A stretch of DNA of 44,592 nucleotides from Treponema sp. (GCA_009780285.1 WRAL01000001.1:1-44592); one strand, 5' to 3'; shown: positions 12,336 through 43,655, counted from the first letter of the stretch. The notes: generated by a model not told the origin, from the sequence alone. Numbers and translations are program-made.

Positions 12336-12358
12336 TCGCGCTCTCCTTCGCTTGCCGC

Positions 12359-12410
12359 AAAAAAAAACGGGCCGGGCTTTCCCTCCGAAAAGGAAAAGCC
12401 CGGCCCGTTC
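12359..12410 (-). terminator. Rho-independent terminator
   Basis: Minus strand AACGGGCCGGGCTTTTCC-TTTTCGGA-GGGAAAGCCCGGCCCGTT plus a long T run. Confidence 0.85.
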
Positions 12411-12482
12411 TCGCGACGCCGGCCCCTCGCGCGCTGGAGGCGCAAGGGTTTGATTGTCAGGACGGGAAAGCCCGCCTGCGGT

Positions 12483-17245: not shown

Positions 17246-17246
17246 C

Positions 17247-18836
17247 TTACCTTCCTCCCTTGTCCAGGCCCCAATCCCGCAGCGCGCGACCGAGCGATTT
17301 TCCCCTGCGCCGTTCGGCCTGCGGCGCGCCGCCGTCGCCGGACTCGGCGAGCCGGCTTTCCCTTCTTTGCTGATAGAATCCCTTGCGCGCCCCGGCCCTT
17401 GGTATGGCGCGGTTCGCCAGCGCCCAGGCCCAGAAGCCGTCCGCGTGGCCGTTCTCGTCGCGCTCCGCGTCGTAGCGGAAGCCGCCGCCCGGCAGCGAAT
17501 GGCGCTTTATCGACTGTATCTGCCTGTGGAACTTTCGGTCGCTTTCCAGCAGAAACTCCCGCTGCTCAAGCCCTTCCTTTACGCCTCGCGCGAGCGCGTC
17601 CTTGCTTTGCAGGGTAAAGGCCACGCGCTCGACAAGCGCCGAGCCGAACTCCCGTTCGAGCGTCTCGGCCGTGTCCATCCCCACGCCGGTAGCGTCCACG
17701 CAGAGCCTTACCACCGGAAGCCCGCTGCGAATTATCATGCGAATCTGATCGCGCTGGTATTCGAAGGTTTCACCCCGCATCTCTATGCGCGCCAGTGATT
17801 TCTTTTTTCCCTCGGGGGTAAGCCCGATGGCGTATATCACGGCCATGTCCCGCGTCCGCGCCACGTCGTAGCCCAGGTAGATCGCGCCGTCCCTTTCCTT
17901 GTCGTAGGAGGCGGCCAGATCGGCCACGCTCCTATGCGCGACGATCTCGAGCCCCTCGTCCTCGCCCTCGCCCTCGGCAAGCTCGCCGGCCCTGTCCCCC
18001 TCGCGCAGCCCCGGCGTATTGGCGTGGATAAGGTCAAGTCCGATGTAGCTGCCGGCCGAGTCCAGGAAGGCGCATTCGAACTCCTGCCGAAACGATTCCA
18101 TGTCCATCGCCGCGAATTCCTCGCGCAGCACGTCCTTTCCCCAAAGCCTTACCCTGTCCTCCGTGTCCATTTCCCTTGCGCCCGCGGCCCGCGCGCCGTC
18201 TATGTCCCTGCACAGCGCCGAGGAATGCCACCAGGGAACGGTGAAGCGCGCATAGTTGGGGTAGGTCGCCTTGTCCGCGCAGATGTCGTAGAACAGGCCG
18301 AGCTTCCCAAGCGGCGTGCTTCCTATCGTTATCGAGCCGCCCCGCGTTATCGAGGGCAGGGCGGCGGTGTAGATCAGCCTTTGCCGCGCCGCCCCATAGA
18401 TGGCGAACTCGTCCAGAACCACGTCGCCGGGCTTTCCCCTGGGCGGGCGGCAGGCTATCGAAAGAAGGCGGCTCGTGGTCTTGCCGTTTTTGTCCAGGAA
18501 CTCGATGCCGGTCTTCGTCTCGTAGACGATTTTTTTCCGGCGCCTTTCCGGAATCTCGGCGGCCATGAGCGACACGTAGCGTATCTTGTCGATGGCGTCC
18601 ATAAGGTTGTACGAAACGAACTGCACGGTGCGGTTTACCGCGCCCTCGGACTGCAGCTCGATGAACTTTTTCGCCGCCACCGCGAAGCTGAACCCTTCCT
18701 GCCGGCCCTTTAGAAGTATGCTGAAGCGGCTGCGATCCTTGAGAAAAAGCTCCTGCCAGGGATCAAGCTCCACCGGAAGGCCGTTGTATTTTAGGAAGGC
18801 GTCCGCGTATCTGAGCGTTTCGTCGTGGGCGCTCAT
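17247..18836 (-). CDS. terL: Terminase large subunit
   Basis: Walker A-like KGRQEGFS, Walker B VVLDEFA, STP coupling motif, RNase H-like GYDVA / VDATG / HADGFWA. Confidence 0.93.
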   Translation of the reverse strand: MSAHDETLRYADAFLKYNGLPVELDPWQELFLKDRSRFSILLKGRQEGFSFAVAAKKFIELQSEGAVNRTVQFVSYNLMDAIDKIRYVSLMAAEIPERRRKKIVYETKTGIEFLDKNGKTTSRLLSIACRPPRGKPGDVVLDEFAIYGAARQRLIYTAALPSITRGGSITIGSTPLGKLGLFYDICADKATYPNYARFTVPWWHSSALCRDIDGARAAGAREMDTEDRVRLWGKDVLREEFAAMDMESFRQEFECAFLDSAGSYIGLDLIHANTPGLREGDRAGELAEGEGEDEGLEIVAHRSVADLAASYDKERDGAIYLGYDVARTRDMAVIYAIGLTPEGKKKSLARIEMRGETFEYQRDQIRMIIRSGLPVVRLCVDATGVGMDTAETLEREFGSALVERVAFTLQSKDALARGVKEGLEQREFLLESDRKFHRQIQSIKRHSLPGGGFRYDAERDENGHADGFWAWALANRAIPRAGARKGFYQQRRESRLAESGDGGAPQAERRRGKSLGRALRDWGLDKGGR

Positions 18837-33143: not shown

Positions 33144-33217
33144 TAGGAACGGCGGGGATCGAACCCGCAGTCTCCGCCTTGAAAGGGCGGCGTGTCAGCC
33201 AATTCCACCACGTTCCC
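33144..33217 (-). tRNA. tRNA-Glu (TTC), CCA not encoded
   Basis: Acceptor GGGAACG/CGTTCCT-A; anticodon arm CCGCC-CTTTCAA-GGCGG; T arm GCGGG-TTCGATC-CCCGC. Confidence 0.9.
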
Positions 33218-37265: not shown

Positions 37266-38548
37266 TTCGTCAGCGCCTCCCCCTCGCGAAGGTAGATAAC
37301 GCCGTCCTCAAGCTCCGCCGGGGACTCGGCCACGCGAAGCAGTATCACCAGAAAGCCGGCCTCCTCCGCCCAGCGCGAGATCGCGTCGGTCGTTTTTTTG
37401 TCCAGGCTTTCGGCGTTGTCCGCCACGAGCACCTTCATCTCGCCCGCGAACCTGGCGCCAAGGTCGAAGAACACGCGCACCGATTCCGCCGTGGACCAGT
37501 TCGACGTCTTGTTGCTCTTGGTAACGCCGCGCAGGATTCCCTTGTGGTAGAGCATCCCGTCGTCGCCGATCTCAAGGCCGGGAACGCCCAGGTCCATTTC
37601 CGACAAAACCTTCTTGCGCTCCCCGCGCAGGCCCTCGATCTCGGCGGTAAGCCCTGCGTACTTTTTGTCCAGCTCGTCGCGCTCCGCCTGCCGCGCCGAG
37701 TGCTCCTCCCAGGCCCGCGCCTTTTCCGCGAGGTCGTGCCGCGCGGCGAGGCGCGCGTCCAGCGCGTCGACGTCCGCCTGCGCGTAGGCTTTCCCGTCGA
37801 GGCCATCCCTTGTGGCGATGCTTTCCGTAACGTACCGAAACGCGTCGTCGCTTGCCTTTCGGAAGGCTTCAAGGCCGGCCATGTCCGCGAAAAAGCAGTC
37901 CTTGCGCAGGCTTTCGCTTGCCTCGGCGAACAGCCTTTGCCTCCACGCCAGATGCGCGCGCGCCTTTTCCCGCTCGGCCTTTATGTCGTCCGCCGGCGCC
38001 GGGCGCTCGGCCTTTTCCGGCGCCGCGCCCGGCTCGCCCAGCTTTTTTCTGTCGCGCCCGATCTCCGTGCGCAGCGTTTCCAGCCCGGAAAGCCGCATGT
38101 CGAGCGTCTTTAGCTTTTCCGTCGCGCCGGAGCGCTCCATGAGCGCCTCGGCGATCTCCGCGTCCGTGGAATCCCGCAGCGACCAGGGCTGCTCAAGCCC
38201 CGAGCAGAGCGAGTCGAGAAAGGCGCGGACGCCGCCGGAGACGTTGATGTGCCTGCGCAGCCCCTCGTCGTACTTCTGCGCCGTCTGCCTTACGGTCTTG
38301 GAAAGAATCGTGCGAACCTTCAGCCCGTCGTCCGTGATCGCGACGATCTCCGCCTCGTCCTCGCCCTTGGAGATCATCCCCGGCGTGAAGGCGCTTGGCC
38401 CGTTCATCGTGAGCGCTATCGCCTGCGCGACGGTGGACTTGCCGCTCATGTTCGCGCCCTCTATAACCTGCGTTCCGGGGCCGTGAAAAAAAACGCTCGC
38501 CTGCCGTATCTTGCGGCAGTTTGAAATGTGAAGCTCCTTTAACAGCAT
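37262..38548 (-). CDS. SMC/Rad50-like AAA ATPase
   Basis: Walker A GANMSGKST, coiled coil, WSTAE signature-like motif, Walker B LVADNAESLD. Confidence 0.85.
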   Translation of the reverse strand: MLLKELHISNCRKIRQASVFFHGPGTQVIEGANMSGKSTVAQAIALTMNGPSAFTPGMISKGEDEAEIVAITDDGLKVRTILSKTVRQTAQKYDEGLRRHINVSGGVRAFLDSLCSGLEQPWSLRDSTDAEIAEALMERSGATEKLKTLDMRLSGLETLRTEIGRDRKKLGEPGAAPEKAERPAPADDIKAEREKARAHLAWRQRLFAEASESLRKDCFFADMAGLEAFRKASDDAFRYVTESIATRDGLDGKAYAQADVDALDARLAARHDLAEKARAWEEHSARQAERDELDKKYAGLTAEIEGLRGERKKVLSEMDLGVPGLEIGDDGMLYHKGILRGVTKSNKTSNWSTAESVRVFFDLGARFAGEMKVLVADNAESLDKKTTDAISRWAEEAGFLVILLRVAESPAELEDGVIYLREGEALTK

Positions 38549-39564
38549 TACGCGGCCCCCTTCTTTTCCGATACCGTCATGCGCGAGCATTCGTCGGTCT
38601 TTGAGTAGCGCTCGTAAAGGCCGTCCTTTTTAAGCGCGTCCAAGTCCGCCGATCTCTTGGCGAAGGTCGTCCACGACACCGAGTACCCGCCGCCGGAGGC
38701 CGAGAGTTTTTTCTCTTTCCCGCCCGACGTCCTGGCGCAGAGCGCCGCTTTCAGGTTCGTGCCGGCCGCGCTCTTTAGCGTTTCCAGTTCCTTTATTCGG
38801 TCGCTTGCGTCCCTGTACTCGCGGCACAGCGCGATCTCTTCCTCGGTCATGATCGCCGGCGCGTCCGCGCCCTCGAAAATGCCGGTTATCATCTCCTCCT
38901 CGCTCTCGATCCCGACGGCGGCCGGCATTGAGTCTTTAAGGATGTTGTTTTCCCAAAAATCCTTTTCGATGGCCGCGAGCCTCGCGATGAATTCGTCGTT
39001 TCGCCTGATCGCGTAGTGGCGCAGGCTGTCGTCCTCTAGCACGTAGACGGAAACGAGGAACCACGGAAGGCCGGCGACGCTCATGTAGTGCTGAACCTGG
39101 CAGTAGTGCGCGTCCGGTATTTCGTCCTCGCCCCATCCGTGGCCGGCCTTCGAGGTTTTGATCTCGTGTCCGCCCAAGCCTTCGATTGTCTCGCCGCGAA
39201 TCTCGACGGGGGCCTTGGCCAGAATCGCGCCGTCAAGGTTGGCCGACATGTGCCGGCGATCCGGATCGTAAAGGATGGCCGGAACCTCGGCGATCTCAAG
39301 GCCGGGGAAGTCCCTGCGCGTTTCCTCGCGGATGATCGGCTCAAGCAGGTTTCCCCTGCGCATGGCGCTGTTTTCTTCTTTTTTCGGGGCGAGGCCCTTC
39401 TTTTCCATGTAGACCGTCAGGGGGCTGGCGAAGTCGTTCATTCCCATCAAGGCACCGGCGTCCGAGCCGCCAATCGAGCCCCTGCGCTTTTCCAGCCACT
39501 CGTCCCTGCCCACGCCGTCCAACAGGACGTGCGGGCAACGTTCTAAAATCCCGTCGTAAATCAT
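38548..39564 (-). CDS. YqaJ-like viral recombinase exonuclease
   Basis: WLEKRRGSIGGSD, G..LEP, ANLDG, EIKT, Y.CQVQHY. Confidence 0.93.
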   Translation of the reverse strand: MIYDGILERCPHVLLDGVGRDEWLEKRRGSIGGSDAGALMGMNDFASPLTVYMEKKGLAPKKEENSAMRRGNLLEPIIREETRRDFPGLEIAEVPAILYDPDRRHMSANLDGAILAKAPVEIRGETIEGLGGHEIKTSKAGHGWGEDEIPDAHYCQVQHYMSVAGLPWFLVSVYVLEDDSLRHYAIRRNDEFIARLAAIEKDFWENNILKDSMPAAVGIESEEEMITGIFEGADAPAIMTEEEIALCREYRDASDRIKELETLKSAAGTNLKAALCARTSGGKEKKLSASGGGYSVSWTTFAKRSADLDALKKDGLYERYSKTDECSRMTVSEKKGAA

Positions 39565-39641
39565 GCGTTCCTCCGTTTGTTTTTTTTCGAATTCTGCAAG
39601 CACACCATCCGCTCCCCCTTGCCGGCCTCGGCCGGAATGAT

Positions 39642-39760
39642 AAAAAAGGAGGCCAAGACTCCGAGTTCCCGAACGTCAGATACAGGGGCCTGACGCCCGG
39701 CTCGAAATCTCAGCCTCCGCTGAAAAGTCACGTTTTCCCTTGCCCCTGTAACAAGGTTTG
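39642..39760 (-). ncRNA. Structured leader/attenuator, copy 1
   Basis: AACCTTG hairpin (TACAGGGGC) and long terminator hairpin whose loop is GCCCCTGTA, then T6. Confidence 0.6.
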
Positions 39761-39823
39761 TATAAATAGTCTCATACAGGACTATTTATATCTAATTATC
39801 ATCTTATACACGACTATTGCCAA
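39761..39823 (-). promoter_or_regulatory. Promoter and operator dyad
   Basis: TTGGCA-17 nt-GATAAT (39823-39795); inverted repeat TATAAATAGTC-8 nt-GACTATTTATA at 39761-39790. Confidence 0.65.
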
Positions 39824-39869
39824 GCCCTTTTCGTCGCAAATAAGATATTTTTTTGCCGATAATGTTCTT

Positions 39870-40154
39870 ATGGGCGACCCGGCCGTTCCGTTTTGGGAAC
39901 GAGTGAACCAACTCATAAAAACCCGAAAAACCACCCAGGAGGACTTGGCAAAAAGCCTCGGCATCCCTTTTGGCACTTACAGGGGGTGGAACGCCTACAG
40001 GCGCCTCCCCGACGTTTTATCCGGCCTCCTCATCGCCCGCGCCCTCGGCACGACCGTCGAGCACCTTGTTACCGGCGAGGAGCCCGGCAAGCCGGACGTG
40101 GCCGACGCCATCAGGCACCTGGATACGGCCAGGGACCTCCTCCAAAAGCTCTGA
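39870..40154 (+). CDS. XRE-family HTH regulator
   Basis: TQEDLAKSLGIPFGTYRGW...P...IARALGTTVEHLVTG. Confidence 0.88.
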   Translation: MGDPAVPFWERVNQLIKTRKTTQEDLAKSLGIPFGTYRGWNAYRRLPDVLSGLLIARALGTTVEHLVTGEEPGKPDVADAIRHLDTARDLLQKL

Positions 40155-40183
40155 CCCGCCTCTTTCTCTTTCCTCCTCAGAAT

Positions 40184-40275
40184 AAAAAGCCGCCAGATGG
40201 CCGTCGGCGAGGTAAGCGCCTTGGGCCGCTTCACGGCTCTTTTTGCCCTTGCCCTCTTACCTAAAGCAAGGTTCG
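40184..40275 (-). ncRNA. Structured leader/sRNA, copy 2
   Basis: AACCTTG hairpin (loop AGGTAAG) and terminator hairpin with loop CTTACCT, then T5. Confidence 0.6.
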
Positions 40276-40281
40276 TTTTCA

Positions 40282-40339
40282 GATTGGCAATATTGCCAAT
40301 CCATATTTTTATAATAGCGCATATATCCAATTATGTCAA
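40282..40339 (-). promoter_or_regulatory. Promoter and perfect palindromic operator
   Basis: TTGACA-17 nt-TATTAT (40339-40311); GATTGGCAATATTGCCAATC at 40282-40301. Confidence 0.75.
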
Positions 40340-40396
40340 TAGCAAATTGGCAATATGCTCAATTTTTTTTCCTGATATCAGCCGACAATTGGGCAT

Positions 40397-40669
40397 ATGG
40401 TCTTTTACGATACCGTCAAGGCTCTGGTAAAGCAAAACACTCATCTAACCCTCCAAGCCTTCGTCCAGTCACTGGGGCTGAATTACGGCACCTATCACGG
40501 CCAGCGGAAATCGGGCAACCTTCCCCGCGCCGACGAGGCCCTCCTCATCGCCCAGGCCCTGGGAACCACCGTCGAGCACCTCGTTACCGGCGCTCCCCCC
40601 GATGCGTCGTCCTCGGACAAGGCCCTGGACGACATGCAGGCCGTCATCGACCGCCACAGGAACCGCTAG
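40397..40669 (+). CDS. XRE-family HTH regulator (paralog of 39870..40154)
   Basis: LPRADEALLIAQALGTTVEHLVTG. Confidence 0.85.
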   Translation: MVFYDTVKALVKQNTHLTLQAFVQSLGLNYGTYHGQRKSGNLPRADEALLIAQALGTTVEHLVTGAPPDASSSDKALDDMQAVIDRHRNR

Positions 40670-40952
40670 CGCCTCCTTCGCCGTAGCCAATCCCTTCATA
40701 CGATTGCGCCGTTTCGGCACCTGCAATCTCAGATTGCAGGTTGGCCAAAGTCCCGCTCGAAACCGATGTTTTCATGCTTTCCAGAACCGCCGTCATCTGC
40801 GCCTCGGTAAGATAGGTGGTAAGGCCGTTTTTCATGAGCTCCGGGAAAAGCTCCCTGACGTGGCCCTTTATCGTCTCGGGATTGCATCCGAGCGCCTCGG
40901 CCGCTTCCCTCACCGTCATCCTCATGTCCCTGATCTTCGCCACGCCGCTCAT
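40644..40952 (-). CDS. HTH protein resembling an antirepressor N-terminus, probably truncated
   Basis: MTVREAAEALG...YLTEAQMTAVLESMK; homologous to 41991..42312. Confidence 0.55.
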   Translation of the reverse strand: MSGVAKIRDMRMTVREAAEALGCNPETIKGHVRELFPELMKNGLTTYLTEAQMTAVLESMKTSVSSGTLANLQSEIAGAETAQSYEGIGYGEGGASGSCGGR

Positions 40953-41109
40953 TCCCACCTCCTTGGCAGCCCGCCGCCCTTCGGCAGCCGCAAAAGGCAC
41001 GGACGTTTCGGCTCGGGCTCTTTGCCCCCCTGCTCCGCCTCTTTTCTTCCTTTAATCCCGCCTTTCGGCTCCGGCCGCCTCGGCTTTCCGGTCGCTTTTC
41101 CTCGTTCCC

Positions 41110-41460
41110 TCATATAATCCCCGCCTCCCTTAGCTGCCGCTCGAGGCTTTCGGTCGAATTCACCACGATCCCCAGGCCGCCCTGCCGGTTCACCGTCTCA
41201 AGAAAGGCCGCCTGCTCCGCCGAGAGCCTTCCGCCCCGCTCGCGCTTGCACTCGACGAAGATCGCCCGGCCCTCCGGGCCAAGCGCTATCACGTCCGCCA
41301 TGCCCTTCGCGCCGAAGCGCACGTGCCGGCCGCCCGGCGTCTCCAGCGCGCCTGAGTTCACCCGCCAGCGCAGGAAGCCGCGAGCCTTGAGCCAGTCCAT
41401 CACGGCCCGCAGCACCTCGCGTTCCGGCGCGCCCTTGCCGGCCCTCATTCCGCTTGCCAT
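41110..41460 (-). CDS. VRR-NUC domain nuclease
   Basis: GMADV...FVECK...GRLSAEQ..F. Confidence 0.9.
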   Translation of the reverse strand: MASGMRAGKGAPEREVLRAVMDWLKARGFLRWRVNSGALETPGGRHVRFGAKGMADVIALGPEGRAIFVECKRERGGRLSAEQAAFLETVNRQGGLGIVVNSTESLERQLREAGII

Positions 41461-41499
41461 TTTCCCCTCCTATGTCCTTTTCGCATTTTCTTTTACATA

Positions 41500-41537
41500 A
41501 ATTGGCTTGTCTAATTGGCTTGTCTAATTGGCTTGTC
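41500..41537. repeat. Three tandem 13-bp repeats
   Basis: AATTGGCTTGTCT x2 plus AATTGGCTTGTC. Confidence 0.95.
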
Positions 41538-41589
41538 GCGGAGGGCAAGGCGGGCAGCCGAGAATCCCTCCGCGTCCTGAAACGGCGAT

Positions 41590-41922
41590 CTATCTCATGG
41601 GCAGCCCCCTTCTTTTCACCGCGCTCTCGACCATCGTCTTTATGTAGGCCATGTCGCTCGCGTGGCGCTCGTCCAGCCGCCTCAGCAGCTCCTCCGCGTC
41701 GGAGGGCCGCAGGCGGACGTTGCCGTCGCCGAACTTGGACAGGAACAGGTAGTCGTCGACGTCGGCGGAATCGAAGCGCACCCCCGAGCGCACCCTGTGG
41801 CTCGGAAGCTCCTGCGCGGACGCCATGTTGTAGACGAGCTTGGCGCTGACTCGCAGCTTCCGGGCCACCTCCGCCGGCTTCAAAAGCTCCCCGCGTATCG
41901 CGGGCGCGGTTTTTCCGGTCAT
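41590..41922 (-). CDS. Excisionase-like HTH_17 DNA-binding protein
   Basis: LLKPAEVARKLRVSAKLVYNM...ELPSHRV...VRF...DVDDYL. Confidence 0.8.
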   Translation of the reverse strand: MTGKTAPAIRGELLKPAEVARKLRVSAKLVYNMASAQELPSHRVRSGVRFDSADVDDYLFLSKFGDGNVRLRPSDAEELLRRLDERHASDMAYIKTMVESAVKRRGLPMR

Positions 41923-41990
41923 TTTTCCCTCCTTCGCCGTTCTCGGCCATAGCTTCGCCCTTCCCTCTTGCGAGGGCTTTTTTTCCCGTC

Positions 41991-42312
41991 CTAAAAGGCA
42001 AGCGCGGGGCGGGCCGCCGAAACTTGCTCCGCCGCGCCTTCTCGCCTAACAAATTGAGCGGTTTCTGTACCTTGCATAACGTTGAGCAAGGTTCCCCCGT
42101 CCTCCTTCTTGTGGAAAGAGCCGCCCGTTTCCCTGGACTTCATAGCCTCCAGGATTACCGTGACCTGCGCTCGGTAAGAAGCGTTTCCTTGCCGTTCTCC
42201 GTCCAGCCCGCTTTCTGGGCATAGGCCGCCACCGTGCGGTACGCCGCGCCCGTCGCCTCGGCCACTTCCTTCAGCGTCATCCGCCTGTCCCCGCTCCTCG
42301 CAACTCGTTCAT
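41991..42312 (-). pseudogene. Frameshifted HTH/antirepressor-like gene
   Basis: AAGGAGG-ATG 42312; adding one G at two places gives MNELARSGDRRMTLKEVAEATG...LLTEAQVTVILEAMK...GTETAQ. Confidence 0.6.
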
Positions 42313-42325
42313 TCGTGCCTCCTTC

Positions 42326-42435
42326 AAAAAAAGGGCATCTAAAGCCTTCCGCGCCACCACGCTTCCGGCTATAGATGCCCTCTTTCTTCCTTCCGGCCCC
42401 GTGGTGGCGGGGTTCGGCTAACGCGGCAAGGTTTC
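42326..42435 (-). ncRNA. Structured leader/attenuator, copy 3
   Basis: AACCTTG, hairpin containing CGCCACCACG, terminator hairpin with CGTGGTGGCG in the loop region, T7, RBS. Confidence 0.6.
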
Positions 42436-42459
42436 CCTTCCCATGTCGAATATACTTTG

Positions 42460-42488
42460 ATTATAGTCTAAGTTATCTTGCGTGTCAA
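42460..42488 (-). promoter_or_regulatory. Consensus sigma70 promoter divergent from the repressor
   Basis: TTGACA-17 nt-TATAAT. Confidence 0.85.
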
Positions 42489-42551
42489 GCCCAAATCAAA
42501 AAAAATTAAATTCTTCTTAGGCCCGCTGGGATCACGCCCGATAATGGAAGC

Positions 42552-43655
42552 ATGAAAGAGAGGCTTAAAGAGTTGCGGAAGCGCCTTGGCCTGACGCAGG
42601 GCGAATTCGGCGAGCGGCTGGGCGTGTCCGACGTCGCCATTTCGTACATGGAATCCGGAAAAACCGCGATCAACAGGAAAAATCTCTACCTTATATGCGC
42701 GACGTTCGACGTAAACGAGGATTGGCTCCGGGACGGGACGGGAGAAATATTTAAGGAAGGCGTAAAAAAGGATGATTTATTAGCTATATTAGGGGAAAAT
42801 ATAGCGGGGATGTCGAAAATTGCCCAAGAAATGCTTGTGGAATACTCTATAAAACTGCTGGCCGACGAGGGCGCTTTGGAAGCCGCGATACTCAGCAGAA
42901 TATGGGGAATGAGGATGAAAGGGGCAGACCCGGCCGAGGAGTACTGGGATCAAGAAAACCGCCGATGGATAACAGAGACGGAGCGGCCAATAGCGGATGC
43001 CAGCCCATCGGGAAGCGATCCGCGCCCTGACTTTGATTTCAAGAGGATACTTGATTCGGATTCCGACCTAAAGCTGAGGGCCATGCAGGAATGGCGCGGG
43101 GTAAGACGCAAGTACGAAAAGCCCCTAAAAACGAAGGCCCCGGACCCGGAAAGCCCCGGACCCGACGCCGCCGAGTCGCCGGCCTCGCACACCGCCGAGG
43201 CCGCGCCGCCCTACGGGGAGAGGCGGCCTGGCGGCGCTATTATCCTTGATTGGGAAATGGCAATGATCCCTCATATAGGAAAAATCGCCGCCGGCGAAAT
43301 GATCGAGCTTTACGGGGAGCCTGACAGTTGGACTCCCTTCCCCAAAAATTTACTTCGAGGCAATCTAATGGACTACTTTACCGCCGAAATCAAAGGCGCG
43401 TCGATGACCGAGGCCGGCATACGCGACGGAGACCGCGTGGTGCTGCGCAAGGCCGAGGCCCCTATCAACGGAAGCATCATGCTCGTAACCCACGCCGACG
43501 AAACCGCGCTTAAACGGATCAAGATCAAGGAAAAAAAGCGCGGGATCGAGGTTCACATCCAATGGGAGGACGGCAGCGGCCGGTCAAAGCTGCTCGACGA
43601 CGAGGAGTACGAAATCCACGGGGAACTGCACTCGATTCTTTCGTTGCCCTCTTGA
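42552..43655 (+). CDS. CI/LexA-like repressor (XRE HTH + S24 peptidase)
   Basis: N-terminal HTH; IAAG cleavage site, GASM catalytic Ser, LKR catalytic Lys. Confidence 0.9.
   Translation: MKERLKELRKRLGLTQGEFGERLGVSDVAISYMESGKTAINRKNLYLICATFDVNEDWLRDGTGEIFKEGVKKDDLLAILGENIAGMSKIAQEMLVEYSIKLLADEGALEAAILSRIWGMRMKGADPAEEYWDQENRRWITETERPIADASPSGSDPRPDFDFKRILDSDSDLKLRAMQEWRGVRRKYEKPLKTKAPDPESPGPDAAESPASHTAEAAPPYGERRPGGAIILDWEMAMIPHIGKIAAGEMIELYGEPDSWTPFPKNLLRGNLMDYFTAEIKGASMTEAGIRDGDRVVLRKAEAPINGSIMLVTHADETALKRIKIKEKKRGIEVHIQWEDGSGRSKLLDDEEYEIHGELHSILSLPS

Follow-up and report, generated by a model that had tools for sequence, protein, structure and literature searches.

Leaders with covarying loop–loop pairing in Treponema prophages and a predicted role in attenuation

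What is the function of an RNA leader in which the loop of a first hairpin is complementary to the loop of the terminator that follows, when the matching words change from one leader to the next? The question is raised by a Treponema sp. sequence (GCA_009780285.1, WRAL01000001.1:1-44592) that was analysed over its full 44,592 nucleotides (nt), hereafter the window. The window is one whole 44.6-kb contig of a genome that is ~70% complete; a protein family scan found tail sheath, portal, terminase, RecT, YqaJ, HicAB and CI-type repressor genes, which identify it as a prophage or phage contig. Three leaders, W1, W2 and W3, lie on its minus strand, each facing a helix-turn-helix (HTH) gene; XRE1 is the gene that faces W1. 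We refer to the first hairpin of a leader as P1 and to the pairing between the P1 loop and the terminator loop as the kiss. A sequence-only reading had proposed that these leaders represent an RNA family that carries a sequence-coded, orthogonal attenuation or immunity system.

Loop pairing and covariation across a family of leaders

The hairpins of the three leaders are as follows.

39738..39758, minus strand: W1 P1 hairpin; 5' arm AACCTTG at 39758-39752, loop TTACAGGGG at 39751-39743
39642..39718, minus strand: W1 terminator hairpin of 30 base pairs (bp) with U run; loop word CCCCTGTA at 39688-39681
40247..40273, minus strand: W2 P1 hairpin; 5' arm AACCTTG at 40273-40267, loop AGGTAAG at 40262-40256
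40183..40240, minus strand: W2 terminator hairpin with U run; loop CTTACCT at 40216-40210
42397..42412, minus strand: W3 P1 hairpin, CCCCG-CCACCA-CGGGG, of the family consensus type
42326..42382, minus strand: W3 terminator hairpin with U run; symmetric GGAA/GGAA internal loop, loop TGGTGG at 42359-42354

As originally described, each leader combines P1 with a long terminator-like hairpin and a U run (folding z of -5.8, -2.2 and -4.4), and each has its own word, with cross-matches among W1, W2 and W3 of 1–3 nt. Loop complementarities of 9, 7 and 10 nt had been claimed. The 7 nt of W2 stand, while W1 has 8 nt and W3 has 6 nt of loop–loop Watson–Crick pairing; the longer figures had counted stem bases, and the CG pairs flanking the W3 loops belong to their own stems.

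Using a first covariance model (R1; 7 seeds, no kissing term built in), we obtained matches in 14 of 151 genomes of the same taxonomic family, the window's genome included, and a second model (R2) was positive in 3 of 39 further genomes of the same genus. Pattern scans contributed two contigs: a viral one that bears two copies, and one from a metagenome. Over a wider range, R2 found matches in 3 of 36 genomes within the family and in none of 114 from five other families, a zero that comes from a scan limited to 29 candidates per genome and is not evidence of absence. When whole collections were scanned with a consensus pattern, the matches listed were mostly chance loci. Of 58 viral relatives of XRE1 (1 locus) and YqaJ (57), the 27 scanned with R1 gave nothing above 15 bits. 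The final set comprises 33 leaders, drawn from 17 genomes and 2 contigs, with Treponema sp. genomes L309, L329 and L341 among the carriers; 14 were chosen with the kiss in view, and 19 came from models or patterns that ignore the kiss. It leaves out a copy with a short terminator adjoining tRNA-like sequence (L147), a match at window positions 12359-12454 that has no kiss, reverse-strand shadows, loci duplicating counted leaders and R2 matches below 35 bits. W2 and W3 score on the covariance models and W1 does not, so that W1 is a member by architecture only.

The kiss proved to be a property of the set. A cognate loop match of at least 6 nt was found in 30 of 33 leaders, compared with 34 of 1,056 non-cognate pairs (3.2%), and the cognate sum of 196 compares with a maximum of 131 in 100,000 permutations. 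Among the 19 copies selected without regard to the kiss, 16 have a perfect match of 6–7 nt, one includes a single G-U pair, one has a single mismatch and one is broken; the count becomes 16 of 21 when L147 and window 12359-12454 are included. In 715 kb of the remaining 1.94 Mb of the host genome, 28 of 1,825 pairs of a hairpin and a terminator-like hairpin reach 6 nt (1.5%).

Covariation was assessed on alignment A5, which has 26 rows, some of them misaligned at the loop. Five of the six kissing pairs change on both sides and one is invariant. The kissing covariation is 0.328 against 0.140 in shuffled alignments, with 0 of 500 shuffles as high and all slid controls exceeded, although kinship among the sequences inflates these values. 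The stems are 93% paired, with covariation at 19 of 23 pairs. The first kissing position is an invariant C, and a CC-G in the P1 arm is conserved. The words CCACCA, CCGACA and CGGCAC are each seen three times, and the same loops recur across genomes. In L139 the single mismatch lies between two common codes, and this copy looks like a transition state between them.

These leaders are a real, uncatalogued RNA family. The proposal of a motif with covarying loop–loop pairing was thus borne out by independent genomes, and comparison with Rfam returned no existing family: at the gathering score the window gave a tRNA only, the leader region searched with Rfam 15 at E values up to 10 gave four chance matches, and 16 related loci gave tRNAs and one weak snoRNA, in a library whose inclusion of the guanidine-IV model is unconfirmed.

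The core type consists of a CCCYG-6 nt-CRGGG P1, a linker rich in purines (78%; median length 7 nt), a long terminator hairpin and a U run. The terminator has a lower stem of ~15–17 bp, a mostly symmetric internal loop that is often of the GAA/GGA kind, and an upper stem of 3–5 bp topped by the partner loop; along the 5' arm, the distance from the terminator base to the kiss is 21–26 nt in 24 of 30 copies. By sequence, hairpin and U run are present in all 33 leaders, a promoter-like site (at least 9/12) lies within 200 nt upstream in 24, and an RBS-like (ribosome-binding-site-like) word lies within 30 nt of the terminator in 19. The leaders sit behind promoters in control regions of prophages or integrative elements, and cassettes can be stacked within one element (four in L121, three in the window). 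Among 23 neighbouring proteins scanned, we found opposite-strand repressors and downstream antirepressor, excisionase-like, recombination, ligase or unknown genes.

Further leaders with other kissing words lie upstream of homologues of XRE1 and of the HTH gene at 40644-41000, and some face small HTH genes other than XRE1 homologues. Neither of the shared marks first noted extends to the family. The XRE link is no rule, as a kissing leader occurs at 2 of 28 XRE1-homologue loci (L093–L120), and of the 33 leaders only the three of the window have AACCTTG inside P1 or no more than 45 nt away from it.

A predicted attenuator acting in cis

We lean, with moderate confidence, towards reading the leaders as cis-acting attenuators in which the kiss competes with the base of the terminator and thereby gates prophage early genes. 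According to this model, the kiss would form co-transcriptionally, ahead of the last arm of the terminator. It could precede the complete terminator because the partner loop would be transcribed ~25 nt before the U run. Once formed, the kiss would hold the terminator base open, so that polymerase reads into the early genes; were it slow or broken, the 15–17-bp lower stem would zip and transcription would stop at the U run. The leader would then serve as a second lock after a near-consensus promoter under presumed repressor control. Our best guess for the trigger is kinetics alone (polymerase speed, pausing, Mg2+), and the fraction of transcripts read through would then be fixed.

The proposed steric exclusion comes from the geometry of the hairpins. 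Tandem G-A loops stack, which would make for a stiff hairpin; if the terminator is such a rod, a short linker cannot span it. In a strict rod model, at least 3 basal nt would remain unpaired in 25 of 30 copies, with a median of 6. Linkers of 2–5 nt occur in 13 of 33 leaders, and all of those scored keep the stem base open in both the strict and a lenient geometry. The long linkers of W1 and W3 are predicted to fold, which would leave 9.7 and 6.2 basal nt open (5.6 and 2.4 in the lenient geometry). Within the P1-to-terminator interval, no secondary-structure antiterminator offsets the opening of the stem base, whose basal 7 nt cost 9–23 kcal/mol in 33 of 33 leaders.

Several observations weigh against this model. 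In the lenient geometry the median falls to 2.4, with at least 3 basal nt open in 13 of 30 copies and none in 8 of 30, and in the long-linker copies G227a, G352c and G266 the kiss and a full terminator are compatible even under the strict model. At about -7 to -16 kcal/mol, the loop duplex is in most cases less stable than the opposed stem base, so that any effect must be kinetic. Three of the 33 copies have an imperfect or lost kiss, and the covariation statistics are subject to the inflation by related sequences described above. Finally, several copies, W2 among them, have no gene directly behind them; polymerase reading through W2 would cross XRE1 in antisense and enter W1.

In mechanism, the leaders come nearest to the guanidine-IV riboswitch (GGAM-1), rather than to P4 CI or P1 c4 RNA as had been suggested. 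In guanidine-IV, a 5' hairpin loop kisses the loop of an intrinsic terminator and is proposed to block the outer terminator pairs (PMC7736828, PMC11611296); there, the kiss hinders completion of the terminator, elongation of P2 strains the kiss, and the model is partly tested (PMC11611296, PMC7736828). The present leaders share the pairing of P1 and terminator loops, here predicted from covariation, and an intrinsic terminator as expression platform, here recognized by its sequence. They differ in that the loops vary and covary, no set of highly conserved binding-pocket nucleotides was found (one of six pairs is invariant), and several copies are stacked per element. Moreover, the scanned neighbours include no sugE/emrE-type or guanidine-related gene, and prophage regulators and recombinases take the place of exporters. 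By analogy, the leaders are best read as attenuators of the guanidine-IV kind that lack a conserved pocket for a ligand.

The zipper-type attenuator of pLS20 offers a second comparison. Its antiterminator is an extended secondary-structure stem that works ligand-free in vitro (PMC13401043). Its terminator, like those proposed here, adds a second lock in the leader after a mobile-element promoter controlled by a repressor, but the leaders described here have just a 6–8-bp loop–loop contact and no alternative stem of similar energy between P1 and the terminator.

In the literature covered, which excludes supplementary candidate-RNA lists and most subscription papers, we found no description of such phage leaders, and only a riboswitch gated by a ligand turned up as a close precedent for a loop that kisses the loop of the terminator itself. 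If the model is right, the leaders would be a ligand-free, freely recodable version, in which folding order and sterics suffice to gate intrinsic termination, and would add an RNA layer to the lysis–lysogeny decision of spirochaete prophages. The 33 natural variants, of ~100 nt each, are testable as one in vitro transcription series.

Immunity in trans and other explanations

An action in trans follows logically from the cis model, since a terminated leader RNA would expose both loops. Once accumulated, such an RNA would add to the cis switch: it could capture the nascent P1 loop or the terminator loop of a matching leader, block its cis kiss and force termination, much as P4 CI RNA forces termination through different pairings, and the codes would then offer a compact, programmable set of gene-regulation parts; we consider this unlikely to be their function. 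The c4 RNA of phages P1 and P7 is, like P4 CI RNA, an antisense immunity RNA. Like both systems, the leaders precede the presumed early operon of a temperate element, with predicted premature termination and antirepressor-type genes downstream (antirepressor genes in two loci, which fits immunity in trans). P4 CI RNA immunity uses seqA and seqC sites (PMC4825925), whereas here both complementary words lie in hairpin loops of one short leader. The seqA/seqC arrangement also requires a third target site, for which we found no enrichment: third copies of kiss words within 600 nt were counted in 1, 1, 1 and 4 of 30 leaders against 7–15% in controls. The W1 8-nt kiss word does recur within XRE1 (39978-39985, plus strand) and the W2 word at 17246-17252 (minus strand), between the RBS and the start of the portal gene; given the family-wide result, these extra copies are probably chance. 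In favour of an action in trans, kisses differ in 14 of 15 pairs of copies within one element, in the two copies of viral contig L160, whose terminator arms are identical, and in 17 of the 22 pairs whose arms share an identity of 80% or more, a count biased by the selection of pairs on arm identity. The last count is suggestive of a fast turnover of the kiss. Nevertheless, 14 of 15 is what the 3.2% chance rate gives: one identical pair (in G352) was observed against ~0.5 expected, so that identical loops are not rarer than chance and the proposed orthogonal, sequence-coded immunity receives no support beyond chance. Two further within-element cross-pairs reach 6–8 nt when G-U pairs are counted. 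The threefold recurrence of three common words also argues against coding in trans, as does a kiss identity of 0.56 against 0.60 for the terminator arm and 0.43 for its middle (20 well-aligned rows, with 6 of 26 left out), and an RNA acting in trans would have to outcompete a tethered partner within ~1 second. An elaborate form, a protein-free immunity relay, seems rather improbable to us: the cis kiss would permit read-through, terminated RNA would poison incoming leaders with the same code of 6–9 letters, different-code cassettes would be stacked, and antisense read-through would pass over the next repressor gene.

The kiss might instead be a scaffold stabilised by an ion, a metabolite or a protein of phage or host origin, making the leader a factor-gated switch. 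Such a factor could recognise the invariant C, the conserved CC-G of the P1 arm and the recurrent internal loops of the GAA/GGA type, and the topology equals that of guanidine-IV; on the other side, all but one of the six kissing pairs vary, no metabolic gene context is common to the copies, and a PHROGs scan of 37 window proteins, most of which had no match at all, returned no known antiterminator family. We regard a factor-gated switch as doubtful. It is also rather unlikely that the terminator always forms and that the kiss belongs to the tertiary structure of a ~100-nt stable small RNA as the product, with read-through left to a separate processive antitermination system. The copies and stacked cassettes with no gene directly behind them (four cassettes in L121) and the long-linker copies that accommodate both kiss and terminator are in line with a stable RNA, but the frequent RBS-like word close to the terminator is not, and the 13 linkers of 2–5 nt could not span the hairpin in either geometry. 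As the matches are short and the window's three leaders partly paralogous, functionless chance matches or relics of local duplication were weighed as well; these we hold to be most improbable, as they are refuted by the cognate versus non-cognate test and opposed by a background of only 1.5% per hairpin pair and by compensated changes over 19 sources.

Other features of the window and of related elements

Around the hairpins, the window carries the following features.

39795..39823, minus strand: W1 promoter-like site TTGGCA-17-GATAAT, a consensus match only (10/12), divergent from XRE1
39763..39788, no strand: dyad at the W1 start, a likely XRE1 operator
39870..40154, plus strand: XRE1, 94 amino acids, HTH_3 repressor-like by domain match
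40282..40301, no strand: dyad at the W2 start, a likely XRE2 operator
40311..40339, minus strand: W2 promoter-like site TTGACA-17-TATTAT, 11/12 consensus
40397..40669, plus strand: XRE2, 90 amino acids, 44% identical to XRE1, with no Pfam match of its own
42427..42433, minus strand: W3 AACCTTG, predicted to pair with linker GGAAGG and so shorten the linker
42460..42488, minus strand: W3 promoter-like site TTGACA-17-TATAAT, 12/12 consensus
42552..43655, plus strand: CI-type repressor, 367 amino acids, HTH_3 and S24 peptidase domain matches
38548..39603, minus strand: YqaJ-like recombinase, the first long gene after W1, followed by an AAA protein, an exonuclease and RecT
40644..42312, minus strand: genes after W3, namely a broken HTH gene, excisionase-like HTH_17, VRR-NUC and an antirepressor-N-terminus-like HTH gene

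The divergent promoters with 17-bp spacing first described were recovered as minus-strand sigma-70-like sites starting at 39823, 40339 and 42488. Other parts of that description needed correction. Dyads are present at W1 and W2, but W3 has no clear dyad rather than an imperfect one; words like the W2 dyad also adjoin XRE homologues without a leader. The third 'XRE gene' does encode an HTH protein, of the CI type with an S24 domain. An RBS-like sequence had been assigned to each leader: the W3 terminator is followed by an RBS and an ATG (42312), while none of the start codons behind W2 has an RBS. The W2 hairpin is terminator-like on the plus strand too (40183-40245), 30 nt past the XRE1 stop, so that the XRE1 mRNA probably ends in its antisense copy. 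The first gene after W3 (42312-41991, minus strand), whose HTH product resembles the N-terminal part of antirepressors encoded in related loci, appears, by comparison with homologues, to be frame-shifted near 42300 and is frame-shifted again near 42167, and the W3 operon may be decaying.

Two termite-gut metagenome runs (X1 and X2), one of which may be the window's own source, were compared with the window. Together with the Treponema sp. genomes that carry the motif, these runs point to a termite-gut treponeme as the most likely host. Their main contigs match it over W1 and W2, and both agree with it at the frame shift near 42167. Low-depth single contigs from X1 and X2 over 39752-40279 show a leader resembling W2 that follows another dyad, a version of the XRE1 promoter in which similarity stops at the heptamer AACCTTG, and a W2-like terminator with another P1. 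Promoter–repressor and leader modules thus seem to have been shuffled near AACCTTG.

The heptamer itself, with its complement CAAGGTT on the plus strand, occurs at all three places reported, and the window holds 9 copies against 3.66 expected (0 of 100 shuffles reach 9). In W3, the true P1 lies 21 nt downstream of it. A pattern of promoter, AACCTTG and CAAGG was rejected as a signature: it matched 37 of 401 genomes of the order, and a reversed control also matched often. A looser AACCTTG pattern matched 153 of 218 genomes of the family and, among the matches listed, looked chance-like. A fourth AACCTTG hairpin, at 42093, lies within disrupted coding sequence, and its fold is no more stable than those of shuffled sequences (z -1.4). 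In L075, of the same genus, an AACCTTG hairpin at ~1570-1610 has a loop complementary to the sequence directly behind it, in a different arrangement.

Elsewhere in the window, 12355-12456 (minus strand) holds a leader of two hairpins, close to a promoter and ahead of a virion-module gene, with a strong terminator and a loop of the UUCG type; its R1 score is 34.9 bits, yet it is without a kiss. A tRNA gene lies at 33144-33217 (minus strand), within the early-middle operon.

In related elements, one leader copy stands directly before an ATP-dependent DNA ligase gene (L179, 1507-2473). A recurrent hairpin with the words GTGTTTC/TGTTATC lies by leaders in L121 (6400-6460, 8275-8330, 8750-8800 and 9290-9340), downstream in L146, L148, L154 and L155, and upstream of position 267 in L129; a hairpin upstream of other copies carries TGGTTC/TGTGTTC. 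Rfam gave no match for these extra hairpins beside the leaders. In L129 (353-705), L178 (1616-1940), L142 (57-426) and L146 (2025-2563), the 3' end of a small gene is overlapped by a second, convergent small gene whose start reads roughly 'EQELRAKALEIA'.

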